A DNA stretch of 64,000 bases, from the NCBI GenBank assembly GCA_965223075.1, contig OZ244986.1, positions 3,204,462-3,268,461 on the forward strand, read 5' to 3'. The stretch comes from Candidatus Marinacidobacterium sp. Lineage in GTDB: Bacteria > Acidobacteriota > Vicinamibacteria > Marinacidobacterales > Marinacidobacteraceae. The notes beneath the pieces were generated by a model, which did no database searches, was not told where the DNA came from, and saw only the letters and a program-made list of their open reading frames with translations. Positions 311 through 61,695 of this stretch are shown one piece after another. The position numbers and the translations under genes were made by a program. The stretch's first letter is position 1; every line of letters begins with the position of its first letter.

Positions 311-437
311 TTCGCGCTCCTGCGCGATGCCGACCGGAGGTCGGCGTTCCAAGCCGTCCCCGCGCTTCTTCGCGGTTGGCGATGCACGATCTCGCTGCGC
401 ATCGCGCAGCGGTGCCGGTCTGAAGACCGGCGTTCCC
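311..437. repeat. REP-like intergenic repeat unit with hairpins GCCGACCGGAGGTCGGC and GCCGGTCTGAAGACCGGC
   Basis: Same ~70-120 bp motif (AAGCGCGGGGACGGCTTGGAACGCCGACCTCCGGTCGGC...) recurs at more than 10 intergenic loci in both orientations. Confidence 0.8.
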
Positions 438-502
438 TTCTGGGCGGCTCCATTCGGGTGGCTGGCATCGCCGAAGGGCCGCGCCTATGCGGAATGTCCC
501 CG

Positions 503-1795
503 CTACCCGTCGCGGGCGATCCGGATCCCCGTCGCCTGCCAGCGGGCGTCGGGTCGGAGGACGTGACGGTAGGTAGCGCGCATGTGGGAAGCCGGCGTGA
601 AGCAGGACCCGCCGCGGAGCACCATCCGGCCGGACATGGACCTGCCGCTGGATTGGCCGAAGACCCCGGACGGGCGGAACCCCGGGTAGGGGAGATAGGC
701 GCTCGCCGTCCACTCCCAGGCGTCCCCGAAGAGCTGGGTCGGGCCGGATCCCCCGGGATGTGTCTCTTTCGGCGCGGGTGACGGCCACAGGCCGCCGTCT
801 TCGAGGAAATTCCCCTTGACCGGCCGGTCCACCGCCGCCGACTCCCACTCGAACTCGGTGGGCAGCCGGGCTTCCCGCCAGCGCGCGAAGGCGTCGGCTT
901 CGAAGTAGCTGATGTGGATGACCGGGGCGTCGGGCGCCAGCGGCGCCAGCCCGCCCAGGGAAAACTCGGCAAGACCGTTGCCCTGCCGGACCCAGTGGAG
1001 CGGCGCTTCCCAGCCTCCGGCGACCCTGGCGTCCCACCCGTCCGAAAGCCACAGCGAGGACTCGCGGTATCCGCCCTCCTCGATGAACTCGAGGTACTCG
1101 CCGTTCGTGATCAACCGCGAGGCGAGCTGGAACGGCTCGACGAGCCGCTCATGACGGGGCCTCTCGTCGTCGAAGGCGAACCCCGCTCCCCGGTGGCCGA
1201 AGGGCAGCGTTCCTCCGGCGAAGGCGACGAAGCGGAGCGGCGGGGGAACTCCTCCCCCCGCCCCGGTGGGGGCGTCGCGGTAGGCGGGATAGAGCGGGTT
1301 CCTCGAGAACATGTGTTTCAGGTCGGCGAGCAGCCGCTCCTGGTGCTGCTGCTCGTGGTGCAGCCCGAGCACCACCACTTCCCGGACGTCCTCGGGAAGC
1401 TCCCCGACAAGGCGTTCCTCCATCGCCTCATCCACCCGGCGCCGGTAGTCGAAGACCTCGGCCACTGTCGGCCGCGACAAGACGCCCCGGTCGCGGCTGA
1501 CCTCGACGCCGGCGGCGGAGACGCCAAAGATCTCCTGATACTCGGGGCGGGCCGGGGAATGCCCGAGCCCGTCCCGTTCCAGCACGCCCTCCCGGGTGAG
1601 CACGCCCTCCCGCGCGAGCACGAAGGTCTCGAAGAACCACGAAGTGTGGCCAAGGTGCCACTTCGCCGGACGCGCGTCCGGCATGGACTGCACCACGTAG
1701 TCCTCGATGGCGAGTGGCGCCACGAGTTCCGTGGTCTGCCGCCGGACCCGACGGAACGCGTCCCCCAAGGCGGAAGGAGCCTCGGCTGCGGTCAT
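503..1795 (-). CDS. egtB: EgtB-like sulfoxide synthase (DinB_2 N-domain plus FGE-sulfatase/SUMF1 C-domain)
   Basis: HLGHTSWFFE DinB-type metal-binding motif near the N-terminus; C-terminal FGE-like RGGSCFT...R motif; ATG at 1793-1795; only 20 bp downstream of the HlyD gene stop. Confidence 0.75.
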   Translation of the reverse strand: MTAAEAPSALGDAFRRVRRQTTELVAPLAIEDYVVQSMPDARPAKWHLGHTSWFFETFVLAREGVLTREGVLERDGLGHSPARPEYQEIFGVSAAGVEVSRDRGVLSRPTVAEVFDYRRRVDEAMEERLVGELPEDVREVVVLGLHHEQQHQERLLADLKHMFSRNPLYPAYRDAPTGAGGGVPPPLRFVAFAGGTLPFGHRGAGFAFDDERPRHERLVEPFQLASRLITNGEYLEFIEEGGYRESSLWLSDGWDARVAGGWEAPLHWVRQGNGLAEFSLGGLAPLAPDAPVIHISYFEADAFARWREARLPTEFEWESAAVDRPVKGNFLEDGGLWPSPAPKETHPGGSGPTQLFGDAWEWTASAYLPYPGFRPSGVFGQSSGRSMSGRMVLRGGSCFTPASHMRATYRHVLRPDARWQATGIRIARDG

Positions 1796-1814
1796 GCCGC
1801 CTGCGGCACTCGCA

Positions 1815-6123: not shown

Positions 6124-6254
6124 GGAGACGGCCAGGGAGCCGTTCGACGCGGCGGCGGTTCCGTTGCTGCTTCCGTTCAATTCGGTGTCCCGTTCGTTCG
6201 CCTACCTATACGGCGCGCAGCCTACCCTGTTCCGACACTTCGGTACCAGGGACG

Positions 6255-6455
6255 GAACGCCGACCTACAAAAAGCGCGGGAACGGCTTGGAACGCCGACC
6301 GGGAAGAAGCGCGGGGACGGCTTGGAACGCCGACCTCCGGTCGGCACCGCGGCCGAAGGCCGCGAACGGCGTGCGGCCGATCGACAAGCACCGCGGGGAC
6401 GGCTTGGAACGGCGACTTCAGATCGGCACCGCGGCCGAAGGCCGGGCACGGCGCA
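6255..6455. repeat. Cluster of 3 REP-like repeat units
   Basis: Three tandem copies of ...AAGCGCGGGGACGGCTTGGAACGCCGACC(TCCGGTCGGC)ACCGCGGCCGAAGGCC... Confidence 0.8.
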
Positions 6456-6500
6456 CTGCCGGCCCGGCTGAAACGCGCGCCGGGTCTCGCTCGCGCTGAC

Positions 6501-8064: not shown

Positions 8065-11000
8065 TTGAAATTCGAAGACCTTCACCTCGGCACGCGTTTG
8101 CGCGGAGTCACCCCCGGCGTGGTAACGGTCGTCCAGGCCGAGCTGCGTGGGGACACCGCTCTCAGCCTCACCTATAAGGACGAAGCCGGCGCCCTCCACG
8201 AGGTCCTGCTCTTCCGGGACGACGAATCACGCCTCGAACTCGCCGGTCCCTGCCCGATCCGTTCCTTCGCCGCCGACCCGAAACAGTTCCTCCTCGCGGC
8301 GGAGGCCGAGCGGATTCGCCTTGCCCATCTCTTCGATCCGTACCTCGCCGTCCACACCTCGAAGATCGAACCCCTGCCCCATCAGATCACTGCCGTCTAT
8401 GGCGCGATGCTCGACCGTCACCCTCTGCGCTTCCTCCTCGCTGACGACCCCGGCGCAGGAAAGACGATCATGGCCGGGCTTCTCATCAAGGAACTCGTGC
8501 TGCGGGGCGATCTGGAGCGCTGCCTGGTCGTCGCGCCGGGTTCGCTCGTCGAACAGTGGCAGGACGAACTCGGCGAGAAGTTCGATCTCGACTTTGCGAT
8601 CCTCAGTCGGGATCTGCTCGCCGCGTCTCGGAGCGGCGACCCCTTCTCCGAGCATCCCCGACTGATTGCCCGGCTCGACATGCTGAGCCGCGGCGAGGAT
8701 CTGCAGGACCTGATCCGAAGCGCCGAGGAATGGGACCTCGTGGTCTGCGACGAGGCGCACCGGATGTCGGCAAGTTTCTTCGGCGCCGAGGCGAAGTACA
8801 CGAAGCGGTACCAGCTCGGGCGTCTGCTCCGGGACCGGGCGCGCCACTTCCTGTTGATGACCGCAACGCCGCACAACGGCAAGGAAGAGGACTTCCAGCT
8901 TTTCCTCGCTCTCCTCGATCCGGATCGCTTCGAGGGCCGTTTCCGTCCCGGCGTGCACTCGAAGGATGCAAGCGACACGCTGCGTCGGCTGACCAAGGAA
9001 GAGCTCCGCCGCTTCGACGGGACCGCGCTCTTCCCCGAGCGCCGCGCCTACACCGCCCAGTACGAATTGAGTGAGCCGGAGACCACGCTCTACGAGGCGG
9101 TCACGCAGTACGTCCGTGAGGAGATGAACCGCGCCGAGCGGTTCGCCGCGACCGACGACCGCCGCCGGGTGAACGTGGGCTTCGCCCTGACGGTGCTGCA
9201 ACGCCGGCTCGCGTCTTCGCCGGCCGCGATCCACGAGAGCCTGAAGCGGCGGCTCGCGCGCATGGAGGATCGGTTGACGGCGATGCGGGAAGGTGTTCCG
9301 GCGCCGGCCCCCGCTCCCACTCTCGATCCGGATGACCTTGAGGAGGCGACAGAAGAGGAGATCGAGACAACCGAGGAGCGCGTGCTCGACCAGGCGACCG
9401 CCGCGGCCACCATGGAGGAGCTGGAGACGGAGATCGAGACGCTCCGGCGCCTGGAGAAACAGGCGCGGGCTCTGCGCCTCCGCAACACGGACACCAAGTG
9501 GCGCGAGTTGAACACCGTCCTCGACCACCCGCTGATGACCGCCGGGAACGGCCACCGGCGCAAGCTCATTGTCTTCACCGAACCCCGGGACACTCTCGAA
9601 TACCTCGCCGACCGGATTCGCACCCGGCTCGGAAGGCAGGATGCGGTGGTGGTGATCCACGGCGGCGTGTCGCGCGAGGCCCGGCGCGACGCGGTGGAAG
9701 CGTTCATGAACGACCCCGAGGTGGTCGTCATGGTGGCGAACGACGCGGCGGGCGAGGGCGTGAACCTGCAGCGCGCTCATCTGATGGTGAACTACGACTT
9801 GCCCTGGAACCCGAATCGGCTGGAACAGCGTTTCGGGCGCATCCACCGGATCGGCCAGACCGAGGTCTGTCACCTCTGGAATCTGGTGGCGAAGGACACT
9901 CGTGAAGGCGAGGTCTATGGGCGTCTGCTGGAGAAGCTCGATGTGGCGCGAAAGGCGCTCGGCGGCCGGGTGTATGACGTTCTCGGCCGCCTGTTCGAGG
10001 GCAAGGCCATGCGGGACCTGCTCCTCGACGCGATCCGCTACGGGGAGAGTCCGGAAGCCCGGAACCGTCTCTTCGAGAAGGTGGATCAGGCCGCCGCCAC
10101 GGAGCGGATCGGAGAGTTGCTCGCCGAACGCGCGCTGGTCCGCGAGCACCTGAGCCCGGCGACCGTCGCCGAGATCCGTGACCAGATGGCTCGGGCGAGT
10201 GCCCGGCGGCTGCAGCCGCACTTCATCCGCCGGTTCTTCCTGGAAGCCTTCCGGGCGCTTGGCGGCAGCGTCCATAGGCGCGAGAGCGGGCGGTTCGAGA
10301 TCGCGCGCGTCCCGACCGACATCCGCGACCGGCTGCCCAGGAACCTTCGTCCGGCGGTGCAGCCTCGTTACGAGCGGATCTGCTTCGAGCGGAAAGACGC
10401 GGCCGGTCCGCCGTTCGCGGCCTTCGTGTGCCCCGGCCATCCGCTGCTCGACCGGACGCTCGGTGCGATCCTCGACCGATCGAGGTCGGCCCTCGCCGAG
10501 GGCGCGGTGCTGGTGAACGAAACGGACGACCGTCCGGAGATACGCGCCGAATTTGCGGTGCGAACCGCCGTCACGGATGGCCGAAAGACGCGCTCGGGCT
10601 CGCGGCGCACCATCTCCGAGCGGCTCGCCTTCGTCGAACTGGACGCGAGTGGCCGGGTGGGGAACGGCGGCCCGGCGCCGCACCTCGATTGCCGGCCGAT
10701 CCGGGACGAGGAGCGGGCTCTCCTCGGAGACCGGTTGAGCGCGGAGTGGCTGGGCGGCGACGACGCGATCATGGACCATGCGGTCGGTGCGCTCGTGCCG
10801 GAACACCTCGGCGAAGTCCGGATGCGCCGGGTCGCCGAGATCGAAAAGACGCAACAACAGGTGTTCGAGCGTCTCTCCCGGGAACGGACCCACTGGGACA
10901 ACCGCGCCAACCAGCTCCGGGCGCGGGAGCGCGCGGGGAAGCAGGGCCGCATCGCAGCAGCGCAAGCAGCTCGACGCGCCGAGGAGCTCGACGCCCGCCT

Positions 11001-11532: not shown

Positions 11533-11666
11533 GTGACAGGCATCGAACGCCCGAACCTCCCAATCCACGCCCGAAAACCGCCCGGGAGCGCCTTTTGCCG
11601 GAGATATACTGCCGATCCGATGAGGACTTGGCCCTCCTGAGTTCAGCCCTGACGGAAGGGAGATCC

Positions 11667-12314
11667 ATGACGCGCGCCGAAATCGTCCTGGCGGCTATGG
11701 CTGCGGGGGGACGGGGCGTGTCCTATGACGGTCTCCGCATTCAGAAACTCCTGTTCCTGATTGATGTCGAGATATCGGACTTGTTGGAAGGACCGTATTT
11801 CGACTTCGCAGCCTACAACTATGGTCCGTTCGACAAGAGCCTCTACGAAGTACTTGGGGACCTGGAGCGTCGCGGAAACGTTGCGCAGGGACACGAGAAC
11901 GGTTATGCGGACTATTCCCTGACCTCGGAGGGCAGCGTGGAGGGCGGGCGCGTCCTGGGGACGCTTTCCCCAGAGGCGCGTCAGTTCATGGAGAGCGCGG
12001 CGAAGTGGCTCCGGCTGAGCACATTTCGTCGTATCCTGACCGTGATTTATCTCAAGTACCCCGAGATGGCCCGAAACAGCGTCGTGCCTGAACTCAAGGC
12101 TCCTTCGTTCCGGGCGGCGCACCGTTTCGTCCTCCCGTCATTCCTTTCAGGCGTCTCGCGCATCTTCGATTTCACCGGCAGCCTCGATCCACCCATCTAC
12201 CAGGAGCCGCCTGAGCAGGCGGATGCGATGGCCATTCGTCAGGATTGGGAGGCGGTCGGGGACGATCTCGAGCACGCGCTCGCGGCCTTCGGTCCGCCAG
12301 AGCCTGCACGGTGA
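11667..12314 (+). CDS. Panacea (DUF4065)-domain protein, putative antitoxin-type partner
   Basis: LRIQKLLFLIDVE...YNYGPFDKSLYEVL matches the Panacea KLQKLLYxAQ...YGPVxxxVY pattern; ATG at 11667 with AAGGGAG SD; GC ~58%, lower than flanks. Confidence 0.6.
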   Translation: MTRAEIVLAAMAAGGRGVSYDGLRIQKLLFLIDVEISDLLEGPYFDFAAYNYGPFDKSLYEVLGDLERRGNVAQGHENGYADYSLTSEGSVEGGRVLGTLSPEARQFMESAAKWLRLSTFRRILTVIYLKYPEMARNSVVPELKAPSFRAAHRFVLPSFLSGVSRIFDFTGSLDPPIYQEPPEQADAMAIRQDWEAVGDDLEHALAAFGPPEPAR

Positions 12315-17577: not shown

Positions 17578-17750
17578 CTTGCGGATTCAGCGTCCGGACC
17601 TGGGCGCGGTTTTCGCCCTTTGCGATGCTGGCGATGCCGAGCTGGAGGTCGGCGGTCTCTTGGCTGTCCCGTCACCCTCGTTGACCGGCGTTCCCCCCTC
17701 GAGCATGCCCGGCTTGGCCGGGGTACCGGGAGCGGGTACGCTGGCGTGAA

Positions 17751-22682: not shown

Positions 22683-22740
22683 GTGCCATCGGGGTGGGCG
22701 CGATACGCCCCGATCCCGGCTGATGCGCCATCCATTCCAG

Positions 22741-22887
22741 TAGCGATTCGCGGTTTCGCCCGCCTTCGGCGCGCGATGCCGGCCGGAGGCCGGCGTTCCA
22801 AGCCGTCCCCGCGCTTCTTCACAATCGGGGGGACGCGGTTTCGCGGCCCTCCGGGCCGCGGTGCCGGTGTGAACACCGGCGTTCCCT
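22741..22887. repeat. REP-like repeat units in minus orientation
   Basis: GCCGGCCGGAGGCCGGCGTTCCAAGCCGTCCCCGCGCTTCTTC and GCCGGTGTGAACACCGGCGTTCCC hairpins. Confidence 0.8.
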
Positions 22888-22925
22888 GAACGGCGGCGCT
22901 GCCTTGCTGGGTCTCTTTCCCGGGG

Positions 22926-26009: not shown

Positions 26010-26029
26010 GCTGCGCTCAAAGGAGCGCC

Positions 26030-26075
26030 GGTCTCCAGACCGGCATCGCCCGCCGGAGGCGGGTGAAACTCCCCG
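26030..26075. repeat. Type-B REP-like element (GGAGCGCCGGTCTCCAGACCGGCATCGCCCGCCGGAGGCGGGTGAAACTC)
   Basis: Near-identical copies lie directly after stop codons at 36365 and 41296, and partially at 61548. Confidence 0.7.
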
Positions 26076-26127
26076 ACCCCCGAAAGCTGCATGACCCATA
26101 TCACCCCGTGGTTCCTCCCTTCCCGCC

Positions 26128-30924: not shown

Positions 30925-31165
30925 CGCACATCGCCGACCGAGAAGAAGCGCGGGAACGGCTTGGAACGCCGACTTCCGGTCGGCACCGCGGCCCGCAGGG
31001 CCGCGAACCGCACATCGCCGACCGAGAAAAAGCGCGGCCGGGCCAGGGAACGCCGACCTCCGGTCGGCACGCGCGCTGCCGATGGAGAAGGAGCGCGGCC
31101 GGGCACGGGAACGCCGGTCTTCAGACCGGCACCGCGGCCCGCAGGGCCGCGAACGGCGCGCTGCT
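30925..31165. repeat. Cluster of 3 REP-like units in plus orientation
   Basis: Three tandem copies of CATCGCCGACCGAGAAGAAGCGCGG...GGAACGCCGAC(C/T)TCCGGTCGGCAC... Confidence 0.8.
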
Positions 31166-31308
31166 GAACATCCTTCAAGGCGCGCAACACCGAAAAACCG
31201 GGCTGTCCAAACCCCATCCGCACCCCCGGAATGCGTTGGGAATGAGCGGAACCCTCCCGGTACACTGACCGTTGGTCTTCCTTTCTGAACACTAGGCCGC
31301 CGAGCGCC

Positions 31309-36364: not shown

Positions 36365-36415
36365 GGGAGCGCCGGACTTCAGGCCGGCATCGACCGCCGG
36401 AGGCGGGCGAAACTC
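36365..36415. repeat. Type-B REP-like element
   Basis: GGGAGCGCCGGACTTCAGGCCGGCATCGACCGCCGGAGGCGGGCGAAACTC directly after the stop codon. Confidence 0.7.
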
Positions 36416-36569
36416 ACGCCGCTATCCAGCCCTGAAAGCGGAACGAGGCAGTTTCGGACCCCCGGCGTCCGCCGTTCCGGCGCCCCCCGAAACGCGTTGG
36501 GAAGGGGGGCAAAATTCCGGTAAACTGGCCGTTGGTCTTCGAGTCTCCTCGCGCCGAGCGCCGGCTGCC

Positions 36570-41295: not shown

Positions 41296-41420
41296 GGAGC
41301 GCCGGCCAGTCCTCCTGATGGGAACCTCAGGCCGCGAAACCCGCGCGTAGCCGATCTGCGTAGAGCGCGCGGATGCCCGGGAACGCCGGTGTTTACACCG
41401 GCACGCGGCCCGCAGGGCCG
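41296..41420. repeat. REP-like elements (type B start plus GCCGGTGTTTACACCGGC hairpin)
   Basis: GGGAGCGCCGGCC... and GGGAACGCCGGTGTTTACACCGGCACGCGGCCCGCAGGGCCGC. Confidence 0.7.
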
Positions 41421-41745
41421 CAGAGCGCGTAGACCTGCCCAGCCGCTTGGCGTGGATGCCGGGAACGTCGCACTGACCTGCCAAGGACGGAGCCCGATCC
41501 GCGATGGCTTCGTCACGTTCGGTTCGCGGCGGTGGCGCGTCCGGCTGGCTGGACCAAAGCGATGCAAGTTGCGAAACTTGACTGGTCGGCGTTGCGCCGG
41601 AGGAGGAAGACGAGGACTTCGACTTCAAGCAGACAATGCGGGCCATCCACTCGGAGCTCGACGAACTCAACGCCGAGTCCGTCCGGCTCGCGGCGACCAT
41701 CAAGCGGAACTTCGAGGCTCTGGAACTGTGACTGAACGAAAGTCC

Positions 41746-45202: not shown

Positions 45203-45214
45203 CGGCGCCGCGAA

Positions 45215-45300
45215 ACCGCGTATCGCCGACAGAGAAGAAGCGCGGGGACCGCCGGGAACGCCAGTCTTCAGACTGGCACAGCGGGCCGTAGGCCCGCGGC
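45215..45300. repeat. REP-like unit
   Basis: GAGAAGAAGCGCGGGGACCGCCGGGAACGCCAGTCTTCAGACTGGCAC... Confidence 0.75.
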
Positions 45301-45389
45301 GGCGAAGAAGCCAACCGTCGAAGTGGTTCTGAAGCCGCTTCTGACCCGGGCTCCGGCGTAGAGTTCCGGCGACCCCAGAGCCCTCTCCG

Positions 45390-48457: not shown

Positions 48458-48578
48458 TCCGACCGGCACGCGGCCCGCAGGACCGCTGCGGTGACATCGT
48501 AAGTCATTGAATGTTTTGATTGTTGTACGCGATCTACAACAGTGGACAGCACATGCCGAAGCGCGCGGAACGGCACAC

Positions 48579-49783: not shown

Positions 49784-50121
49784 TTGCCTTTCTGCGGGAG
49801 CAAGCGAAGGCAGGCCAAGAGTGAAGACAGTCCGTTTTCCGGTCATGGACAACTTCCCTCGGTGCGGGATAAATCGGTGACACGGAGCCTGCCACCAGCC
49901 GCCAACAACTCCAGAAGCCGGAGACGCGTGGCCGGAGATGGACTCTCTCGCTTCGGTGAGCGTATCAAGGTCCGCCCGCGCGAACGGCGTGCATGGTCTT
50001 CACGGAATATGGCGTGATCGACGGTGCGGTGCCCCAAAACCCCGTCCAGCAGCGAGCCCGAGGGCTCCCGGACCGGCCGCGGCTCTCGGCGTAGAGTTCC
50101 GCCGCCGCCCGAGTTCCGCTC

Positions 50122-52449: not shown

Positions 52450-52464
52450 CGCGGCCGGCGCGGA

Positions 52465-52525
52465 TCAGGCGCCCGCGAACGGATTGACCACCCGGACGCC
52501 CGACGCAGTCCTGATCCCGCGTTCT
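52465..52525 (-). pseudogene. Remnant of a vapC-like 3' end (encodes ...GVRVVNPFAGA*)
   Basis: About 55 bp that align (imperfectly) with the 3' end of the intact vapC at 56408-56470, in the same orientation. Confidence 0.4.
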
Positions 52526-52532
52526 CGGATCA

Positions 52533-55500
52533 TCACAGATCTTCGCCACAACGCTTGAGATACTCCCTCAGCTTCAGGAATTCCCGATCGTCGCCGAGAG
52601 CCGGTTCGGCGGTGCGAATGCCACGTAGGCACTCTCGAAGTTCGTCGGATGGCCAAGGGTCTTCTTCGCCGATAACGCGAACCAGGAGTTCTAGCGCTTC
52701 ACGCGGAAACTTCTTACACAGGCCAGCCTCATGGAGTGAATGCACGAGTCGATCAGCGTAACTTACCGGTTGTAGCCAGGGCCGGAGTGTTTTCAGTGCC
52801 TCCGGGAATGCGTCTCCCGCAGCGATGCAGACGCGGGCGAAGGACTCCGCGATCGACGAAGAGGCCTTATCCCGTGTTCTCGGCCAAATCTTGCGTACGT
52901 ACGGCTCAACCCTATTCGTCCAATAGGGGACGCGCTGATCGCCCGCGCCGTCGATGGCGCGGACCAATGCGTCTGCAGCTTCCTCAAGCCCGTCCTGTGG
53001 CAGTGCGCGAGTGGCTGCCGCCAACTCCGCGTTCGTAAAGACATCGCTAGGGTCAAGCGCAGCGAATGTCAGGAGTGAAGCATATTGGCCCTTGAACTGT
53101 CCGAGCGCTTCATAGTGAGACGCCGTATCCAGGAATTCCGGTTTGACCTCCTCAACCAGCGGTCGATACAACTGCGGCGACCACAGAAACCCTCCCCACA
53201 CGGAGCGTGCCTCGCACTCGGAGCGCGACCAGTCAAATAGCGGCAGAAGATGTTCAGCTGTCCATTTCCGGTCAACTCGGAACAACGCGATGACGTGAGC
53301 AGCGAGAAGCACGCGTCCGTGGCCAAAACTAGGGACCCCTGTCTTGCAGAGCAGGGAAAAGCGTTCCCGTAGCCCGTCATGCAACCCCTGTTCATCTTCC
53401 AAAGACCCGCGATACCAGTATTCAAGTAGTGCCTCGGTCACTTTGCCCACTGGATGATTGATTGCACGACCGACCACATCCTCCGCGTCGCCGCCGTCCT
53501 CGTAGTCCAGCGCCAGAACACGGTCACATAGCTCGAAAAATGTCGACTCGTGCCCCTCAAAGGTCTTAGCAGTCTTTTCTAGCCACCAACTAATGTCGTG
53601 CGCGAGGTTCTTGAGGGGCGTTTCCGGCGCACTCACCAAGACAGGCATCACAAGGCGCCAAGACGGCCGTATTAGTGTGTCCTCCGACCACACATGCAAC
53701 GCTTTACCCCATCGGCTGGTGGGCCATATGTTCTCCTTCGCCAGTGCAGATAATGCGGACGCGGCAACGGAAAGATCTTCTCGGCAACGAACAGCCCAGT
53801 CGTCCTCGTGCCAAGGATCAGTCCCTTGATTCTCCCTGAGCCAGTTCGTGAGTTCGGGAAGATCGCGTGGTGTCGTGACGGACTCTCGCCAGTCACCAGA
53901 ATCGCTCATCCAAGTGGAGAACTCGTCGCGTTCATTCTCGGCAGGTTTCCAGTCGGGGTGGTGGGCCGAAAGCTCCGTCAGTCTCTGCCGCGTGGTCTTG
54001 CTCAACTTCGCGCCGGACGAGACGACTTTGCTCAGGCGCAGCCAAATGTCTCTCTCCTGGATCCGAGTCCATCGTTCGGGCTCTATTTCGGGCCTGAACA
54101 TTTCACGGGGCGGTCCGGCCTCAATGGCCTGCTCGAGTTGAGCCAACTGTGTATCATCGAGCCGTGGCGCTAGGGAAACTAGTAGCCGTATGCTCTCGCG
54201 CGAGGTTTCCGAGGACCAAAGCCACCAACAGCCATCAGCAAGCAACCACTCAAGCCCGCGGTTAGGGGGAATGATCCCGCTCTGAGTGGCGGCGAACAAC
54301 GCCAAACGACGGAACAGGGGATAGGGAGTTTGCCACCAAATCTCCGCAACGATCCTTGCCCTGTCGGGCGAACTCATGCATGTGGCAAGCCACGCGTCGC
54401 GCGTCCATTCGATCAGCGCGGTCCAGTCATGAAAGCCTCTGTTTTGCGGGTGATCGCTGATGGATGGTTGATGTACGTAGGAAAGATCACTCTTATCGGT
54501 GGCGCCACCGAGCTCGCGCATTAGGTCGAGAGCGTCGTGTAGGAGTCCGTTGAAATCCTGCAACAGCTCTGGAAGCACTGCCGTCCAGCGATCGTCGGTT
54601 GTTAGCTTGCCCAGGCGTGCACGGACCATGTCCGTCGACAGCACAACCTTCCATTCGACCAAGTCTCGGATGCGGTCTGATTCTTCGCTCTCGCGCTCTT
54701 CGGAAGGCAACCGGAATGGCTCGCTCAATGACACGCGAGGAGTAAGCAGTTCGCGCAGTTCCAGACGTAGGCTGGCGGTTATACCATCGCGCTCAAATCG
54801 GTTCGTCCAGGCGTGCAGACGGCGGTCGGGATCCTCACCTCTCACACGGTCTGTCAGCAACAAACGCCAGAGCGTCCGCATTGACGCACGAGGAATTGCG
54901 TTTCGCGCGTTCGCTCGAATGCGGTCCAGTTCTGCACTGTTGCCATTGCGCTCCAGCGTTGTGATTTGGCGGATACGGTTCTCGATCATCCATGCCAGCT
55001 TTTCGTGCACTCGTCCACCGAGCTTGGTGAGCCGCAACAACAATGCGGGGTCGTCGAGATGACGAGTCAACCATCGCCCCAGCTGCCACATTACTTCGTC
55101 CCAGCGCGCGGCCCGCAGATCGGTGTCCGCAAGTGTCATCCACGGAGCGAGTGTGTACGGTGGCGGTCTGTACGTCAGACTGAATGCGAGGTCGGAATCT
55201 GGCGCTGCGTTGGGCGTCACGCTAAAACGGTCCAGGTCGCTATGCCCGAACCGCGCTTCGCTCAACGGCTCATACCAATCGAGAGGAGGTACCGGGTCGA
55301 GTTCTGCAAAGCGCTTCGCTGGCAATCCACTGGGATCTGACAATGCCCACAACATGCGAGTGGCGAAATCGTCCTGTTTCGTGCTCGTTGGCGGGTGCCC
55401 AATGGCACAGTCAACGACGATTCTCTCTTTTCCACGTGCCCCGTCGCGGTAGGTGTCGGCCCACACGCGAAACGTCTCATGCAAGTACGTGTGCTGTGGG

Positions 55501-56318
55501 TCTTCCGCATAGAGGATAGGTGTGACGTTCTTGGCCTTCCACTCTCCTTCTCGTTCGGCCTCCTTGCCCTTGGAGAATGCTCCGAAAACGAACATCTCTG
55601 GCGCCGACTCTCCGAACCGACGGTCTGCAGCGAGAGCATCGGCCATATAGCGCAGAACTGGGTCGGTGAGGCTATAGCCGACGAAGCACACGGTATAGGT
55701 GCGAAACAGCTCGCTAACAAATCGCGCTGCCCAGCGCTCCGTAAGATAGGCGAGGCCAAAGTCGCCGCTAGTCAGGACAAGTCGTTCGAGATCGTTTAGC
55801 GAGGGTTTTTCGGTCAGCAAGCCGTGGAGATAGACCAAGCCGTTCCAGCGACGCTTGGGAATCGGGAGGAGGGGGGCTCGGAAACAGTCCACTGAGGATC
55901 CCGTGCTAGCAATGACTTCATGAAAGAGTCGGTCGAAATTGGTGGTAATAAGTCGAGTGCGGCCATCGCGGGTCTCGCCTAATGTCAACAGGGCGTGATG
56001 GGTAGCCGTTGCACTTGGTGCCGTCAGGTCAGGAGTCAGGATGTTGACCAGTACGTCACCCACAGCCTGACGGCCACCGAGCAGTTTCTCCTCAAGCAGC
56101 CCGATTGCTGTGTCGTACCGGCCCTCCCCTATGGCGGCCGCCTGCTCAGGAGTTGGATCAGTATGCAGATCCTCGTAGAGTCTCTCTACAAGGCCTTTGA
56201 ATCCTGGCAAGCGCGCCGGGTAAGAAATACCCGCGCCGCAGAAGAACACAACGCGCCCGTCTTCGTGCGCCTGCAAGAGCCGTTCAGGGACGTCTGGACC
56301 GCCCGTGGTGAACTGCAT
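52533..56318 (-). CDS. Large SIR2-like (PF13289-type, DHS-like NAD-binding) domain protein, 1261 aa; defence-associated-sirtuin (DSR)-like candidate
   Basis: N-terminal VVFFCGAGISYPARLPGFKGL matches the SIR2_2 signature; long alpha-helical C-terminal region without NTPase motifs; GC ~56% versus ~70% genome; ATG at 56316-56318. Confidence 0.8.
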   Translation of the reverse strand: MQFTTGGPDVPERLLQAHEDGRVVFFCGAGISYPARLPGFKGLVERLYEDLHTDPTPEQAAAIGEGRYDTAIGLLEEKLLGGRQAVGDVLVNILTPDLTAPSATATHHALLTLGETRDGRTRLITTNFDRLFHEVIASTGSSVDCFRAPLLPIPKRRWNGLVYLHGLLTEKPSLNDLERLVLTSGDFGLAYLTERWAARFVSELFRTYTVCFVGYSLTDPVLRYMADALAADRRFGESAPEMFVFGAFSKGKEAEREGEWKAKNVTPILYAEDPQHTYLHETFRVWADTYRDGARGKERIVVDCAIGHPPTSTKQDDFATRMLWALSDPSGLPAKRFAELDPVPPLDWYEPLSEARFGHSDLDRFSVTPNAAPDSDLAFSLTYRPPPYTLAPWMTLADTDLRAARWDEVMWQLGRWLTRHLDDPALLLRLTKLGGRVHEKLAWMIENRIRQITTLERNGNSAELDRIRANARNAIPRASMRTLWRLLLTDRVRGEDPDRRLHAWTNRFERDGITASLRLELRELLTPRVSLSEPFRLPSEERESEESDRIRDLVEWKVVLSTDMVRARLGKLTTDDRWTAVLPELLQDFNGLLHDALDLMRELGGATDKSDLSYVHQPSISDHPQNRGFHDWTALIEWTRDAWLATCMSSPDRARIVAEIWWQTPYPLFRRLALFAATQSGIIPPNRGLEWLLADGCWWLWSSETSRESIRLLVSLAPRLDDTQLAQLEQAIEAGPPREMFRPEIEPERWTRIQERDIWLRLSKVVSSGAKLSKTTRQRLTELSAHHPDWKPAENERDEFSTWMSDSGDWRESVTTPRDLPELTNWLRENQGTDPWHEDDWAVRCREDLSVAASALSALAKENIWPTSRWGKALHVWSEDTLIRPSWRLVMPVLVSAPETPLKNLAHDISWWLEKTAKTFEGHESTFFELCDRVLALDYEDGGDAEDVVGRAINHPVGKVTEALLEYWYRGSLEDEQGLHDGLRERFSLLCKTGVPSFGHGRVLLAAHVIALFRVDRKWTAEHLLPLFDWSRSECEARSVWGGFLWSPQLYRPLVEEVKPEFLDTASHYEALGQFKGQYASLLTFAALDPSDVFTNAELAAATRALPQDGLEEAADALVRAIDGAGDQRVPYWTNRVEPYVRKIWPRTRDKASSSIAESFARVCIAAGDAFPEALKTLRPWLQPVSYADRLVHSLHEAGLCKKFPREALELLVRVIGEEDPWPSDELRECLRGIRTAEPALGDDREFLKLREYLKRCGEDL

Positions 56319-56406
56319 GTGACCTTACGCCCGGTGCACGGTGATCACCGGTTCTTTGACATCCGAATCGGGCTCAACCTGGTTTAAGGAGGCCCGCCTG
56401 GTTGCC

Positions 56407-56826
56407 TCAGACGGTGGCGCCCGCGAACGGGTTGACCACCCGGACGCCGTCGTAGTCCTGGTCGGGGTTCAGGTCCTCGGTGTAAACCGTCCGGCACCCG
56501 GCAGCGCGCGCCGCTGCGAGGATGGCGGCATCCCAGTAGGCAACGCGAAACCGTTCCGTGAGATCGAGGGCGTCATGGATCACTCCCAGGGTGAGCGGCT
56601 GCACCGGGAAACGTTCGAGGCTTCGGACGAAGGCCACGGCTTCCTGGTGGCTGAGGCTCCACGGCCTCGTCGGGCGCGTTGCCTGCCAGTAGAACTCCTG
56701 AAACACCTGGACCGACAAGGCGAGATCGGTTGCATCGAGAAGCTCCAGCGCGCGCCTTTTCTTTCCCGTTTCTTCAGCGACGGGGCTGATCGCGTAGAGC
56801 AGAACGTTCGTGTCAACGAAGCGCAT
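56407..56826 (-). CDS. vapC: VapC PIN-domain toxin
   Basis: MRFVDTNVLLYA...; PIN acidic residues (D5, E41-like, D-T region); overlaps vapB by 14 nt. Confidence 0.85.
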   Translation of the reverse strand: MRFVDTNVLLYAISPVAEETGKKRRALELLDATDLALSVQVFQEFYWQATRPTRPWSLSHQEAVAFVRSLERFPVQPLTLGVIHDALDLTERFRVAYWDAAILAAARAAGCRTVYTEDLNPDQDYDGVRVVNPFAGATV

Positions 56827-57115
56827 CGCGCCTCAGGTGTTCTTCGTGTTCCCGACGAAGGGCATCCCGGTCGTAGAGGGCTTCCCGAGGGAGCCTGTCG
56901 GCGGGCTTCAGCCCGCCACCGCGCGCGCGGATGGCCTCCAGCACTTCGTCCTGAAGCCGCCGCAAACGCTGGAAGCGCTCCTCGGAAGTCCGTGATTGGG
57001 CAATGATCTTCAAACACTCCCGCGTCAGAGCGGAGACCGAGGTTCCCGCCTCTGCCGCCAGGATGCGCGCCGCGCGGTGCGTCTCTTCGTCCACGGATAC
57101 GGTGATGTTCCTCAT
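56813..57115 (-). CDS. vapB: VapB-type (ribbon-helix-helix) antitoxin
   Basis: MRNITVSVDEETHRAARILAAEAGTSVSAL is an RHH fold signature; start taken at ATG 57113-57115. Confidence 0.7.
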   Translation of the reverse strand: MRNITVSVDEETHRAARILAAEAGTSVSALTRECLKIIAQSRTSEERFQRLRRLQDEVLEAIRARGGGLKPADRLPREALYDRDALRREHEEHLRRDALR

Positions 57116-57120
57116 GGACA

Positions 57121-57152
57121 CAGTCTAACAGTCTCACAGTTTCACAGTCTCC
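57121..57152. promoter_or_regulatory. 4 tandem 8-bp repeats CAGTCTNA upstream of vapB; putative antitoxin operator
   Basis: cagtctaa cagtctca cagtttca cagtctcc immediately 5' of the vapB start on the minus strand. Confidence 0.35.
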
Positions 57153-57194
57153 ATCAGGACACTGTGCGGGAGGGCACGCGGCCGCGGCGGTGGT

Positions 57195-57758
57195 TTACCA
57201 GACGGTGACGTCCACCCTGGAGTTGCCGTCCCGGACTTCGATTTCGGTACCGCGCAGCACCGGGATAAGCGAGCGCGCCATCCGGCCGGGGCTGCAACGG
57301 AACGAGGTCTCCCGTTCCTCGCAGGCGTCCTGAACCGCCTCGGAAAGCGCGCGGAGCGGCGTCCTGACGAAGACGCGGGCGCCCTCGGTCCCTGCTTCCC
57401 GCACCCGGATCACGAGGTCTCCGCCCTCCTTGGCGATGATCACCTCGTTGTCCGGCTCGGTGACTCTCACGAGTACGGCGTCTTCGGCTTCCTCCAGGGC
57501 TCCAAGGAACCCACCGAGACCCACGAGCGCCGGACCGCCGAACTCGTCCATTTCTTCGTGCATCGCATCGTCCATCAGGTGGTCGGGAACGAAATGGAGC
57601 GCGGCGAGAGGGAGCATCAGTGGTATCGGGGCCACGAAGTTCGGTCCTTCCTCGGCGACCACCGAGACCACGGCGACGCCGCAGGCCGAGACGCAGGCCC
57701 CGAAGAGGAGCGCGGAGATGAGCGCCGCCGCCAGCAGGATTCCAAGCAGTCGGAACAT
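57195..57758 (-). CDS. Hypothetical secreted/membrane-anchored protein
   Basis: N-terminal hydrophobic MFRLLGILLAAALISALLFGACVSAC; no recognisable domain. Confidence 0.4.
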   Translation of the reverse strand: MFRLLGILLAAALISALLFGACVSACGVAVVSVVAEEGPNFVAPIPLMLPLAALHFVPDHLMDDAMHEEMDEFGGPALVGLGGFLGALEEAEDAVLVRVTEPDNEVIIAKEGGDLVIRVREAGTEGARVFVRTPLRALSEAVQDACEERETSFRCSPGRMARSLIPVLRGTEIEVRDGNSRVDVTVW

Positions 57759-57764
57759 GGCCGA

Positions 57765-58337
57765 TTACCGGGGTTCGATCCAGACGCGGACGCGGCCGTC
57801 GTTCCCGTCCAGCGAGATCAGAACGTCTTCGTGATTCGCGAGGCTCCGGATCGCCGCCCCGAGATCGGGGTCTTCGCCGGCCTCACCGAAGAGCGCATCT
57901 CCGAAAGCCACCGGGAAACGGATGTTCAGGGAGCCGTCGTCGCCGCCTCCCTCGATCCGGATCTCGTCGCCGTCCATCCGCGCACGGAGGTTGCCTCCGT
58001 CCTCTTCGTCAATCTGGACCCACGCGCCCGGGTTCTCCCGGAGCGCACGCCACAAGGCGCGCAGGTCTTCAGAGTCCATGTCGACGTCGGAGTCGTGTTC
58101 CCACTCTTCGGCCATCTCGTTGAAGATGTGTTCCCCGAGCGATCCGCCGAGAGCCTCCACGGCCGCGAGCGGCAGGTTCATCTCGACCTTGGTGTTGTCG
58201 TCGTCGCCCTGGACCTCGAGGTGGAGCCAGGGTTTTTGCTGCGTGAATGCCGGCGTCGCGGCAAACGCGAAGATCAGCGCCAGCGGGATCACCGCGGTAA
58301 CACGGGACAGGAAGGGAATGTGTGAAAGCCTCATCAT
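57765..58337 (-). CDS. Hypothetical secreted acidic protein
   Basis: Signal-like MMRLSHIPFLSRVTAVIPLALIFAFAATPAFTQQ; start trimmed to ATG 58335-58337 because the 5' extension is REP-derived. Confidence 0.4.
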   Translation of the reverse strand: MMRLSHIPFLSRVTAVIPLALIFAFAATPAFTQQKPWLHLEVQGDDDNTKVEMNLPLAAVEALGGSLGEHIFNEMAEEWEHDSDVDMDSEDLRALWRALRENPGAWVQIDEEDGGNLRARMDGDEIRIEGGGDDGSLNIRFPVAFGDALFGEAGEDPDLGAAIRSLANHEDVLISLDGNDGRVRVWIEPR

Positions 58338-58382
58338 GTCCACCCAAACGAAAGGGGCGTCCCCACGGTTCCCGCTCAGGAG

Positions 58383-58500
58383 CTCCGGTCGGCACCCGCG
58401 GCCTGCAGGGCCGCGGAACCGCGCCTCGCTGACCGAGCAGAAGCGCGGGGACGGCTTGGAACGCCGACCTCCGGTCGGCACAGCCCGCCGCAGGCGGGCG
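58383..58500. repeat. REP-like units
   Basis: ...AAGCGCGGGGACGGCTTGGAACGCCGACCTCCGGTCGGCAC... Confidence 0.8.
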
Positions 58501-58681
58501 GACGGTGTAACGCTCGTCATTGGAATGGCTCCGCCGGGAAGGGAACGCCGCCAGTGCTCCCGGTGGGGCCTGGCAGCGCGGCGCGACAGCGCACCGACCC
58601 CCCCCTCGCCACTCCCTGCATGACCCGGAAGGGGGAAGCAACCCGGCCACCCACCACGTCAGGAATGGAATACTCGACCGC

Positions 58682-59515
58682 GTGAACCCCCGGCCCCGGC
58701 GCCCCCGCCGCTCGCTCCTCTACGTCCCCGCATCCAGCGAGCGGATGGTCGCCAAAGCCGCCACCCGCGGCGCCGACGTCCTGATTCTGGACCTCGAAGA
58801 CGGCGTTCACCCCTCCCAAAAGGACGCGGCCCGCGAGCGGCTCCGGAAATCCCGGGCCGCGGCGGCCGCCGCCCGGGCGCTGGTCGCTCTACGGATCAAC
58901 CCCCCAGCCGGCGCCATCGGACGCGCTGATCTCGAAGCCGCCGCGGACGCCGGCTTCGACGCCGTGCTCCTCCCCAAAGCGGAGACGGCGGAAGCCGCCT
59001 CCGAAGCGCGCCGAGCCCTCGGAGAAGCAACGCCGCTCTGGTTGATGATCGAGACCGCGCGCGGCGCGGCGAACGGCTTCGAACTCGCCCGTCAGCCGGG
59101 CGTGGAGGGATTGGTCTTCGGATCCGCCGACTACCGGCTCAGCATGGGCGCCCGGATGCGGCAGGACGAGTCCGAACTCGATTTCGCACGCCAGCGGATC
59201 CTGCTTGCCGCCCGCGCCGCCGGAATCCACTGTTGGGATGCGCCGTGGTTCGCCTTCCGGGACCTCGACGGTTTGTACCGGAGCTCCCGGCGCGCTGCCC
59301 AATCGGGTTTCGACGGCAAATCCGCCGTCCACCCGCTCCAGATCCCCGTCATCCACCAAGCCTTCGAGCCCACCCCGGCGGAGCGCGCTTGGGCGGAAAA
59401 GGTGGTTCACGCGATGGAGGACGCCGAAACCCGCGGCGTCGCGGTCGTCGAACTCGATGGCGAACTCCTCGAGGAACTCCACCTCCGCCAGGCGAGGCGG
59501 TTGCTCGCCAGGTAG
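58682..59515 (+). CDS. HpcH/HpaI aldolase/citrate lyase beta-subunit (CitE)-like protein
   Basis: RRSLLYVPASSERMVAKAATRGADVLILDLEDGV is the CitE N-terminal signature; start uncertain (GTG 58682 proposed; the track ORF starts at 58520 within REP-derived sequence). Confidence 0.7.
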   Translation: MNPRPRRPRRSLLYVPASSERMVAKAATRGADVLILDLEDGVHPSQKDAARERLRKSRAAAAAARALVALRINPPAGAIGRADLEAAADAGFDAVLLPKAETAEAASEARRALGEATPLWLMIETARGAANGFELARQPGVEGLVFGSADYRLSMGARMRQDESELDFARQRILLAARAAGIHCWDAPWFAFRDLDGLYRSSRRAAQSGFDGKSAVHPLQIPVIHQAFEPTPAERAWAEKVVHAMEDAETRGVAVVELDGELLEELHLRQARRLLAR

Positions 59516-59654
59516 CGCAGGCTGCCTGGGCCAAGTGACGTGAGCGCCGAGGCACCCACCGGGAGGAACCCTCGCGATCGGGTCCTCTTGCGCAGCTTCA
59601 CCCGTCGCGAAAGGAATGGCGCTGCACGCACGTTGGCGTAGCGCAGCGTCATCG

Positions 59655-60050
59655 GCGCTGGTTTCGCGCTCCCGCGCGATGCCGGTCTGAAGGCCCCCAC
59701 CGGGAGAAACCTTCATGATCGGTCCGCCTGCACACCCCGCCGGGCATGAAAAGGCGCGGACGCGGAACGCCGAAGGTGCAAGGTGGTGACGGCCGCACGG
59801 GAACGCCGGCCTCCGGCCGGCACAGCCCGCCGAAGGCGGGCGGCGGGAAGGATCCCCAGTTCCGAGGTGGTCCCTTCTCGGCGGGAATCCCAGCGTTCGG
59901 CGTAATCCGTACATGGGAGGGGCAGACACCGTTCGCAGCGCTGCGGGTCCCATGTCTGCGCCCCGTCAAGGCGGACGGCCAGGAACCGCCCGCGGCCCTG
60001 CGGGCCGCTGTGCCGGCCGGAGGCCGGCGTTCCAAGCCGTCCCCGCCAAT
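59655..60050. repeat. Cluster of REP-like units in both orientations
   Basis: GGGAACGCCGGCCTCCGGCCGGCAC... and the reverse-orientation GCCGGCCGGAGGCCGGCGTTCCAAGCCGTCCCCGCC... Confidence 0.75.
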
Positions 60051-60191
60051 TGCGCCGTCGGCTATTCGCGCTCTCAGGCCCATCCGCACTGTCGGCTTCC
60101 GGTCGCGGCTGCATTTTCACAGCAACTGGCGGCGTTCCCTGACCCGGCCGCCCTTCACGCACGACGGATGAACACGATTTCGCCCACTTGG

Positions 60192-61442
60192 TCAGCCCGT
60201 CGCCGCCGGCGTTCCGGAGCCGGATGACTGCGGCATCGGTTTCCGAGTCGCAAACGTGCTCCCTTCCCACCGCGCCACGACGGCCGGCGCGGCGCAGTGG
60301 CTCGCGACGTTCACGCTCGTCCGGATCGGATCAATCAGCGCGTCGATGCCGAGCAGGATGCCGAGTCCCTCCATTGGCAGGCCATGCCCCTGGAAGATGG
60401 CCGCGAGGATCACGAAGTTGGCGCGCGGAACGCCGGCCACACCCTTGCTCGTCACCTTCAGCGTCAGCAGGATGACCGCCTGCTGCTCCCACGAGAGCTC
60501 GATCCCGGCCGCCTGCGCGATGAACAGAGTCGCCATCCCCAGGTGAATCGTGCTGCCGTTCAGATTCAGGCTCAGGCTCAGCGGCGTAACCACTCCGAGG
60601 ATGCGTCGCGGCACCCCGAATCGCTGCAGGTTCTCGAGGGTCTGGGGTAAGGCGGCGGCGCTCGATGTGGTCGCGAAGCCCACAAGGAACGGCTCGCGCG
60701 CGAAATGCGCGAACCGCCGCAGCGGAATGCCGCACAAGAACAGCCCTCCCGCCAGCACTGCCCCGAGGAAGAGCCCCTGCGCAAGCCAGGCGACGGCCGC
60801 GAACTCGGCCAGGCCCTCCAGGCCGGCGGAACCGCCTCCCGCGACCGCATTGGCGGCCGCTGCAAACACTGCCAGGGGCGCCAGGTACATGACGTAGTCG
60901 GTGTAGCGGAACGCGACTTCCGCGAGCGCATCGGCGAAATCCACCACCGGCCGGGCTCTGCTGCCCACCGAGAGGCAGGCAATCCCGAACACGAAACAGA
61001 ACACGACGATCTGCAGCACGTCGCCCCTTGCCAGGGCGTCCACGATGCTCGTCGGAACGGCGTTTTGGAGGGCTTCGATGAAACCGGCCGCTTCCGGGAG
61101 TTCCATGCCGGGGGCCGCATCCAGCGACAGGCCGTCGCCCGGCCTGGTCAGCATCACGCTGAACCAGCCGAGCAGCAGAGCGATCGTCGTGGCGATTTCG
61201 AAGCAGACCACCGACTTCCAGCCCAACCGCCCCAGCGCGCCCATGGACCCGGCGCCGGCGATCGCCCGGATCAACACGCCCACCAGCACCGGGGCGATGA
61301 TCGACCGGATCAGCCGCAGGAACAGGTCGCTCAGGAACTCGATCCGCTCCGCCAAGTGCGGCGCCCAGAGGCCGAGGCACACGCCCGCGGCCATCCCGAT
61401 GAGGATCCACCAGGCAAGCGAGACTCTGGGGAGGCGGGGCAC
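60192..61442 (-). CDS. Dicarboxylate/amino-acid:cation symporter (DAACS, GltP/DctA-like)
   Basis: 416 aa polytopic; typical DAACS TM1 (VSLAWWILIGMAAGVCLG) and conserved C-terminal half; GTG start. Confidence 0.8.
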   Translation of the reverse strand: MPRLPRVSLAWWILIGMAAGVCLGLWAPHLAERIEFLSDLFLRLIRSIIAPVLVGVLIRAIAGAGSMGALGRLGWKSVVCFEIATTIALLLGWFSVMLTRPGDGLSLDAAPGMELPEAAGFIEALQNAVPTSIVDALARGDVLQIVVFCFVFGIACLSVGSRARPVVDFADALAEVAFRYTDYVMYLAPLAVFAAAANAVAGGGSAGLEGLAEFAAVAWLAQGLFLGAVLAGGLFLCGIPLRRFAHFAREPFLVGFATTSSAAALPQTLENLQRFGVPRRILGVVTPLSLSLNLNGSTIHLGMATLFIAQAAGIELSWEQQAVILLTLKVTSKGVAGVPRANFVILAAIFQGHGLPMEGLGILLGIDALIDPIRTSVNVASHCAAPAVVARWEGSTFATRKPMPQSSGSGTPAATG

Positions 61443-61549
61443 CGGGCGGGTCCGGCGCCCCAGCGTACCAGCGGTGACTCCCCGCCGACCCGCTCCCTGG
61501 GGCTCCGAGCATCGCGTAGCGGAAAGCTGTTGGGTTCGATGGCGCTGCC

Positions 61550-61695
61550 GGGAAGGGAGCGCCGGTCTTCAGACCGGCATAGCCCCGCATAGCGGGGCGG
61601 ATCACGTACCGCCGACCGCGAAAAAGCGCGGGGACGGCTTGGAACGCCGACCTCCGGTCGGCACCGCGGCCCGACAGGGCCGCGACGGGCGCCTT
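61550..61695. repeat. REP-like units (type B start plus type A unit)
   Basis: GGGAGCGCCGGTCTTCAGACCGGCAT... then AAAAAGCGCGGGGACGGCTTGGAACGCCGACCTCCGGTCGGCACCGCGGCC. Confidence 0.8.

Follow-up and report, generated by a model that had tools for sequence, protein, structure and literature searches.

Two-hairpin, REP-like mosaic repeats in the intergenic DNA of Candidatus Marinacidobacterium and related Vicinamibacteria

Identification of the repeat family

A 64,000-nt stretch of the Candidatus Marinacidobacterium sp. contig OZ244986.1 (forward-strand positions 3,204,462 to 3,268,461; hereafter the window) contains a family of hairpin-forming intergenic repeats. Each copy is built on a core of approximately 50 nt with two different hairpins in series, and cores occur alone or in linker-joined arrays. 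The kind of element is known, being similar to repetitive extragenic palindromes (REPs) and bacterial interspersed mosaic elements (BIMEs), with a tandem behaviour like that of mycobacterial interspersed repetitive units (MIRUs) and BOX elements; what is new is the family itself, with its two-hairpin unit, head-to-tail arrays and host lineage. Based on its anatomy, covariation, distribution and orientation and on comparison of closely related strains, we think it probable that this is a lineage-restricted, recently expanding, REP-like mosaic repeat that is seeded at the DNA level, amplified locally and likely to lie in 3' untranslated regions (UTRs).

Copies in the window were located using an nhmmer profile and a covariance model (R1) of the core, and genes were mapped from G+C content at third codon positions (GC3) and Pfam matches, with some starts corrected by orthologues. 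The 26-mer GCGCGGGGACGGCTTGGAACGCCGAC has 9 matches in the window at ≤3 mismatches, compared with 0 across 100 shuffled sequences, and the hairpin GCCGGTCTTCAGACCGGC has 11 matches where 0.02 are expected. R1 identifies 18 cores scoring above 40 bits and 3 weaker ones, with 0 expected by chance. These cores group into 11 blocks, all within the intergenic part of the window, which makes up 11.2% of its length (7178 nt). The blocks total 2526 nt, or approximately 35% of the intergenic DNA. A first-pass annotation of this DNA had listed type-A and type-B elements at loci from ~311 to 61600, present as single units or tandems of 2-3, in either orientation and always between genes; copies were found at every one of these loci with both search methods, the unit numbers and orientations agree, and only 6 nt of the blocks overlap genes. 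The spurious peptide (V/M)P(T/A)GGRRSKPSP(R/P)F, also described there, is encoded at 6 sites in the window.

Core anatomy and covariation

The core has the arrangement GGRRCGCC-(7-bp hairpin 1)-GGCAYCGC-(5-8-bp hairpin 2)-GAAAC, and both of its hairpins are GC-rich. Variants of hairpin 1 include GCCGACC-TCC-GGTCGGC, GCCGGTC-TTCA-GACCGGC and GCCGGCC-TCC-GGCCGGC, while the sequence of hairpin 2 is highly variable among cores. A conserved linker of ~35 nt (..ATCGCCGACCGAGAAGAAGCGCGGGGACGGCTT) chains the cores head-to-tail with a period of ~86 nt; in other arrays the period is about 80-84 nt. Earlier, two hairpin variants and a distinct type-B element had been proposed. More than two variants exist, differing by compensatory changes, and type B proves to be the same core lacking an upstream linker, mostly as the first or sole unit, with type A being linker plus core. 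On a single two-hairpin model, type-B cores score 56-62 bits and type-A cores 58-71 bits.

Both hairpins have kept their pairing through compensatory changes. Across 42 copies in a hand-curated alignment, 95.1% of cells are paired, 9 of the 15 pairs are altered on both sides and 92 cells carry double changes (as against 32 in shuffles); partners slid by 1-3 columns pair in 25-35% of cases. The corresponding figures for 120 distinct copies aligned to the model are 96.7% paired and 270 double-change cells (100 in shuffles), although this alignment leans towards structure because it was fitted to the covariance model. A single 86-nt unit has a predicted folding energy of -44.5 kcal/mol (z=-3.05). 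The minimum-energy fold contains a long-range pairing between the linker GCCGACC and the 3' arm of hairpin 1, which was rejected because the linker stays constant when hairpin 1 varies.

Recent gain between closely related strains

Whole repeat-bearing blocks have been gained recently between very close strains. The European Nucleotide Archive contig L052, from a sister strain, is syntenic with the window over 44-64 kb, as is L053, from a 90% relative. The SDF transporter encoded in this region is 99% identical to that of L052 at the protein level and 98.4% identical in DNA. The gap between the beta-lactamase and SDF genes is 396 nt in the window, 41 nt in L052 (where only ~5 nt are unaligned) and 25 nt in L053, and the gap between SDF and HpcH is 676, 57 and 23 nt, respectively. 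The extra window DNA, 355 nt at the first gap (holding block 61538..61715) and ~620-650 nt at the second (holding block 59551..60075), consists of core-bearing mosaics. The block upstream of HpcH (58379..58610) is shared by the window and L052 but is missing from L053. Core density falls from 21 in 64 kb (window) to 3 in 21 kb (L052), 2 in 21 kb (L053) and 0 in 21 kb (L055). This nested pattern of presence, together with the empty outgroup, indicates that the blocks were gained in the lineage of the window.

The repeats had also been suggested to mark recombination hotspots around accessory genes, and for this the strain comparison offers little: a repeat is found at only 1 of ~4 gene-content junctions relative to L052. 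The replaced segment at 48641-50087 has a copy at its edge, and the indels of Dsr1 (SIR2) and of a type I restriction-modification system have none at their junctions. In L052, two near-identical copies of a ~32-nt sequence (CTCGSGGAGGTRGTGGCGGCGCTSCGCTGAGC), corresponding to the 3' end of the beta-lactamase gene, flank the SDF gene at 9930-9965 and 11270-11305.

Distribution and array growth

A genome scan of one genome per species with a 22-mer of the linker as query returned at least 47 blocks of 8 kb in at least 4 metagenome-assembled genomes (MAGs). Among the matches listed, these are Vicinamibacteria bacterium CAXXLQ01, Ca. Marinacidobacterium sp. CBDHFO01 and OZ252286, and Acidobacteria bacterium JAJDVI01. 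As the matches listed all fall in these MAGs, the family is restricted to a lineage of the Acidobacteriota, class Vicinamibacteria (Ca. Marinacidobacterium and relatives), and the first-pass description of it as genome-specific does not hold. A scan of Joint Genome Institute metagenomes gave only 2 chance matches, both inside coding sequence. Gathering-score and E-value scans of the window against Rfam 15 recovered only tRNA-Val, apart from generic long-hairpin microRNA noise, with nothing at E≤1 in 58300-61900; 8 related loci gave no match. Repeats in this lineage were not the subject of any paper found in a literature search.

In 482 kb of related loci (designated by L numbers), the covariance model identifies 204 cores. 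The window and related loci together contain 80 clusters, of which 52 have one unit and 22 have two, the remaining clusters having 4, 6, 7, 7, 9 and 17. Multi-unit clusters in the related loci, of up to 17 units, are head-to-tail in one orientation. Arrays grow by recent tandem duplication: locus L045 holds 10 units of 86 nt at 98% identity, a sign of recent amplification in tandem.

Position relative to genes

All but 2 of the 80 clusters lie outside called genes. For clusters with a single gene 3' end at ≤150 nt, the orientation is sense in 29 and antisense in 4 (binomial p=1.1e-5). Copies are situated mostly 0-100 nt downstream of the stop codon in sense, and many cores begin 1-8 nt past it. 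Both orientations occur within a few kb of each other in the window, tracking the neighbouring gene, which would speak against a purely replication-strand effect. TAG accounts for 18 of the 34 stop codons beside sense cores and for 47 of 170 elsewhere (Fisher p=0.008); we treat this as a lead only, as it may reflect either a target preference or elements that supply the stop codon. Type-B elements had been placed immediately after stop codons at four sites. Those at 36365 and 41296 are so placed, whereas those at 26030 and 61548 are antisense in spacers between minus-strand genes.

No terminator-like site (hairpin plus T-run) coincides with a core. Over positions 22000-64000 such sites number 10 versus 11.0 and 19 versus 14.9 in shuffles, and the organism seems to have few canonical intrinsic terminators. 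With terminator-like sites at chance level, a hairpin-only 3' structure is plausible.

Origin and spread of the repeats

The explanation that we favour is that these elements are selfish REP-like DNA. A DNA-level process, be it recombination among copies or the action in trans of a single-strand (HUH/Y1-type) enzyme, would seed new intergenic sites, and seeded copies would then expand locally via slippage or unequal exchange. Placement just past genes in the sense orientation would be tolerated or favoured. The cores are probably transcribed in the 3' UTR of the upstream gene because they are co-oriented with it. E. coli REPs impede 3'-to-5' exonucleases or pause polymerase, and the two stable hairpins of the core would be predicted to act likewise. 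We infer the mobilising mechanism and any effect on mRNA from these patterns. An influence on transcription termination and mRNA stability had been suggested at the outset: the bias towards sense placement past stop codons fits an effect at mRNA 3' ends, but the cores lack a U-tract and are not terminator-like.

Several observations weigh against this explanation. The 47 related loci were picked by the linker 22-mer, and part of the conservation seen in the linker therefore comes from choosing the loci in this way. Gene calls in these loci are crude (GC3-based), and 42 of the 80 clusters have no called 3' end within 150 nt. The two pairs of filled and empty sites show no clear target-site duplication, the junctions having diverged and the inserts being mosaic, and no defined insertion unit can be read from the empty sites because the inserts carry other repeat modules too. 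Stems contain 13 G·U and 19 A·C combinations and so lack the surplus of G·U over A·C expected if the sense RNA were under selection; for this reason we infer rather than observe any RNA-level effect of the cores. Hairpin 2 is followed by GAAAC and not by a U-tract. Finally, a six-frame translation of 544 kb of repeat-rich DNA contained no HUH...Y signature and no Y1 or REP-associated tyrosine transposase (RAYT) homologue when searched with regular expressions (HUH...Y(x)NP and the class-3 signature) and with phmmer, which is a weak test given approximate queries (IS200 TnpA and E. coli RAYT) and a coverage short of whole genomes.

In the first-pass annotation the family was regarded as REP/BIME-like, and a search for a cognate RAYT/IS200-like transposase was proposed; the search just described bears on this. 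Under such an interpretation, single hairpins would be moved, as in canonical REPs and REPINs (hairpin-forming REP pairs), by a cognate RAYT (a Y1 HUH enzyme) encoded once elsewhere in the genome. The family is indeed high-copy, extragenic, hairpin-forming and mosaic. It shares with the REP, BIME and REPIN elements of Proteobacteria (E. coli palindromic units and BIMEs, Pseudomonas REPINs; PMC3733652) short GC-rich imperfect palindromes in many extragenic copies, placement just downstream of open reading frames (ORFs), mosaic linker motifs and clear presence/absence variation among close strains. REP sub-families with complementary stem changes, as seen here, have also been described (PMC3733652). 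Furthermore, acidobacterial Y1 transposases can be flanked by atypical hairpins or terminal inverted repeats (PMC3733652, PMC6006769), and some of these inverted repeats share GGGGWSAS, which is 1 mismatch from the linker GGGGACGG. However, REP families carry a conserved unpaired GTAG or CGTC at the hairpin foot (PMC3733652), and neither tag stands in that position on either strand of the present cores, whose flanks read GGAAC/GCCG...CGGC/AYCGC and .../GAAAC (slashes mark the foot). Head-to-tail dimers are reported as "absent or under-represented" in REP families (PMC3733652), whereas here two different hairpins stand in series within each unit, units are arranged head-to-tail in arrays of up to 17, and inverted pairs of cores are rare (59800/59983 in the window and in L017). 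The RAYT search gave no candidate from DNA enriched for repeats, and where a transposase was sought between inverted cores (L023 and L039), the gaps hold unrelated genes, namely a DUF1801-like pseudogene and a GGCT-like gene. The CGTC families of REPs likewise have no known dedicated transposase (PMC3733652). Movement by a cognate RAYT is therefore unlikely in our estimation, and the family is REP/BIME-like in its working without being a demonstrable member of the RAYT-associated GTAG/CGTC families.

The bias in orientation, the cores that start 1-8 nt past stop codons, the covariation in both hairpins and the chance-level frequency of canonical terminators in the window would all be expected if the cores were cis-acting RNA elements under selection, such as U-tract-independent terminators or 3'-end stabilisers needed by the host, and not mobile DNA. 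Hairpin-only "I-shaped" terminators have been proposed for GC-rich Actinobacteria. Intrinsic (Rho-independent) and I-shaped terminators resemble the cores as stable GC-rich hairpins located in sense right past stop codons. Unlike such terminators, the cores constitute a sequence family without a U-tract and are also found antisense (three of the 11 blocks in the window) or between divergent genes (one block). Some blocks are missing from the sister strain despite 98% identity of the flanking gene, so the genes concerned can do without them. Chains of 10-17 near-identical units would serve no purpose in termination, and neither a G·U excess nor an Rfam family supports an RNA identity. The lack of a U-tract and of overlap with terminator-like sites led us to reject intrinsic terminators as the identity of the cores, and we judge a selected cis-acting RNA element in the wider sense to be quite improbable. 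Very improbable is a miniature inverted-repeat transposable element (MITE), with terminal inverted repeats and moved by a DDE transposase. MITEs are also small, non-coding and structured and vary in presence between strains, just as these blocks are inserted relative to sister strains; moreover, the same genomes carry a true MITE-like family (M, below), L055 encodes an ISL3 transposase, and two inverted cores surround a 130-nt module at 59800-60033. Against this, the units and arrays end in direct and not inverted repeats, for which reason a MITE identity was rejected; no clear target duplication is visible at either empty site; and copy number shifts by whole 86-nt units. Integron attC sites or a CRISPR-like array might be suspected where hairpins follow ORFs in sense with regular array spacing and with toxin-antitoxin and defence genes nearby. 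This can hardly be the case, since the elements sit among housekeeping operons, RYYYAAC...GTTRRRY ends are absent, the arrays contain no ORFs or unique spacers, the whole 86-nt period is conserved (98% identical), and Pfam scans of the window genes revealed neither an integrase nor a cas gene; both identities were rejected.

MIRUs form head-to-tail intergenic arrays of variable copy number in a GC-rich genome, with units of a length that allows short ORFs to overlap the stop and start codons of the neighbouring genes, and BOX elements have a modular A-Bn-C (start/repeat/end) architecture. Compared by architecture, with no relationship in sequence to be expected, the present family is like MIRUs and pneumococcal BOX in its intergenic units of 40-100 nt, its variable head-to-tail arrays and its co-orientation with flanking genes. 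It is unlike MIRUs in that its period of 86 nt is not divisible by 3 and no small ORF bridges the neighbouring genes, and unlike both in that each unit is defined by two covarying hairpins.

Individual copies in the window

The first block, at 304..457 on the minus strand, has cores at 304-350 and 384-436 with linker (61.7 and 56.2 bits; repeat block 307-457) and begins, in sense, 46 nt past the stop (503) of an FGE-sulfatase/DinB gene identified by Pfam. At 6250..6466 (+), three units, consisting of a truncated one detected by nhmmer (6254-6300) and cores at 6324-6373 and 6406-6455 (64.9 and 42.3 bits), lie antisense between two minus-strand genes. The block at 22736..22903 (-), with cores at 22748-22799 and 22833-22885 (67.5 and 66.6 bits), is in sense 23 nt past the stop (22926) of an AcrB-type gene assigned by Pfam. 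A lone type-B core without linker at 26018..26079 (+; 62.1 bits) is antisense in the spacer between two minus-strand AcrB-type genes, the downstream gene probably starting near 26010 as judged from the Pfam offset. Three head-to-tail cores (30963-31014, 31047-31106 and 31108-31160; 70.8, 42.1 and 68.3 bits) make up the block at 30932..31167 (+), which is flanked by tRNA-Val with a 280-nt element (Y, below) and by the first of a series of DUF5916 genes. The stop codon of a DUF5916 gene (36363) is followed after 2 nt, in sense, by a second lone core without linker at 36365..36424 (+; 55.9 bits).

Downstream of these, the block at 41296..41435 (+) comprises a degenerate core at 41296-41350, with an insert of ~20 nt in the loop of hairpin 1, a linker and a core at 41380-41431 (53.6 bits), and is in sense 9 nt past a stop codon (41287). 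The block at 45205..45329 (+; linker and core 45255-45307; 57.9 bits) is in sense 3 nt past a stop (45202), and alignment shows it to be identical at the matching site in L052. Between divergent genes upstream of HpcH, block 58379..58610 (+) contains a partial core (58379-58424), a linker and core (58458-58509) and a loop-insert variant core (58542-58604), scoring 27.2, 67 and 15.1 bits, respectively. The mosaic at 59551..60075, between the convergent HpcH and SDF genes, was resolved by alignment into cores at 59656-59698 (-), 59800-59851 (+) and, with linker, 59983-60033 (-), which score 18.9, 58.4 and 61.1 bits, plus a structured module (X) at 59852-59982. The last block, 61538..61715 (+; cores 61556-61608 and 61641-61692 plus linker; 56.3 and 62.9 bits), is antisense between the SDF start and the beta-lactamase stop. 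Two fainter matches were also noted: a diverged core-like sequence of uncertain family membership in the Mrr-like/HmaC intergenic spacer (17605..17658, -; 24.2 bits, E=3e-6) and a weak remnant of hairpin 2 right after an antitoxin stop (48457) at 48458..48486 (+; nhmmer E=0.09).

Other repeats associated with the cores

Directly after tRNA-Val and directly before the three-unit array is element Y (~280 nt; window 30629-30905, +). Six copies are known (window, L011, L012, L017, L029 and L032), each followed by a core within about 20-60 nt. The consensus folds into a multi-hairpin structure with 80 pairs, among which 17 show compensatory changes, and ends in a terminator-like hairpin and T-run. 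Y has no Rfam match and could be a small RNA or a structured mobile module. Module X, a structured sequence of ~130 nt between two inverted cores of the window, is 90% identical to L026 7176-7528 and L009 6600-6766, where its flanks are different, and partial copies occur in L021 and L032.

The MITE-like family M (~195 nt) has covarying inverted ends (CAGCCTGTGG...CCACAGGCTG) flanked by YTAR (CTAG or TTAG). Among the matches listed, M occurs in 25 of 47 related blocks, often several times per block, with no Rfam match; full copies include those in L031 (6112-6236, +), L046, L009 and L024. A truncated copy at 61717-61844 (-) of the window provides, through its CTAG end, the TAG stop codon of the beta-lactamase gene, which in the sister strain ends in TGA.

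The 17-mer CAGTTCTCCCGGTGGGG, flanked by GGC/GCC or GGG/CCC, is present in 56 exact copies in 26 related loci (between L005 and L051) and in degenerate form in the window at 58552-58568, 59695-59711 and 41306-41325. It is located inside hairpin 1 of many cores and at five or more positions within M, in both orientations, and it has the appearance of a very small hairpin that has entered the loops of other repeats. One further scheme would have layered hairpin DNA moving as single strands without any element-encoded gene, with cores seeded in the direction of transcription at gene ends and a 17-23-nt hairpin, (GGC)CAGTTCTCCCGGTGGGG(GCC), inserting into repeat loops. We offer this scheme speculatively and consider it rather unlikely. 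If it were true, this hairpin, targeting extruded hairpin loops, would be among the smallest known mobile DNA units, and the cores would represent a RAYT-independent or new-enzyme class of REP.

Neighbouring genes

On the plus strand at 31309-52449, the window encodes seven tandem paralogues of ~780 aa (DUF5916/CBM9-like) with 60-93% DNA identity, several of which are followed by cores. The paralogues are not contiguous: a YhcG/PDC-S02 nuclease gene (41800-42825), a HigB/HTH toxin-antitoxin pair (47854-48457) and 1.4 kb of DNA in which the sister strain differs break the series. A defence island at 8065-21032 (+) has a reduced GC content, 0.59-0.64 at 12-18 kb. It encodes an Hma system (HmaA SNF2 helicase, HmaB DUF1156 methylase and HmaC HEPN-DUF499 ATPase) in which a TIR-domain gene (PDC-S35) and an Mrr-like nuclease gene are embedded, and it is bracketed by the arrays at 6250-6466 and 22736-22903, which have opposite orientations. 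The Dsr1 (SIR2) defence gene at 52533-56318 (-; GC ~0.59) is absent from L052, where the flanking genes abut.

Significance

These repeats have practical consequences for annotation and assembly, as they create long spurious ORFs (recognisable by the GGRRSKPSP peptide) and false N-terminal extensions and break short-read assemblies. In L052 (12303-12992) the gene caller ran through a copy, giving a protein of 229 aa as compared with 182 aa in L053. The short-read contig L001, which corresponds to window 51159-58462, ends inside a repeat at 58462. Differences in presence and copy number among near-identical strains provide ready strain markers for metagenomes. With this family, the range of REP-like elements comes to include an uncultured acidobacterial lineage. 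Because two serial hairpins, head-to-tail arrays and a strong sense bias do not fit the RAYT/REPIN model, this lineage is a test case for the spread of such repeats where no transposase is obvious.

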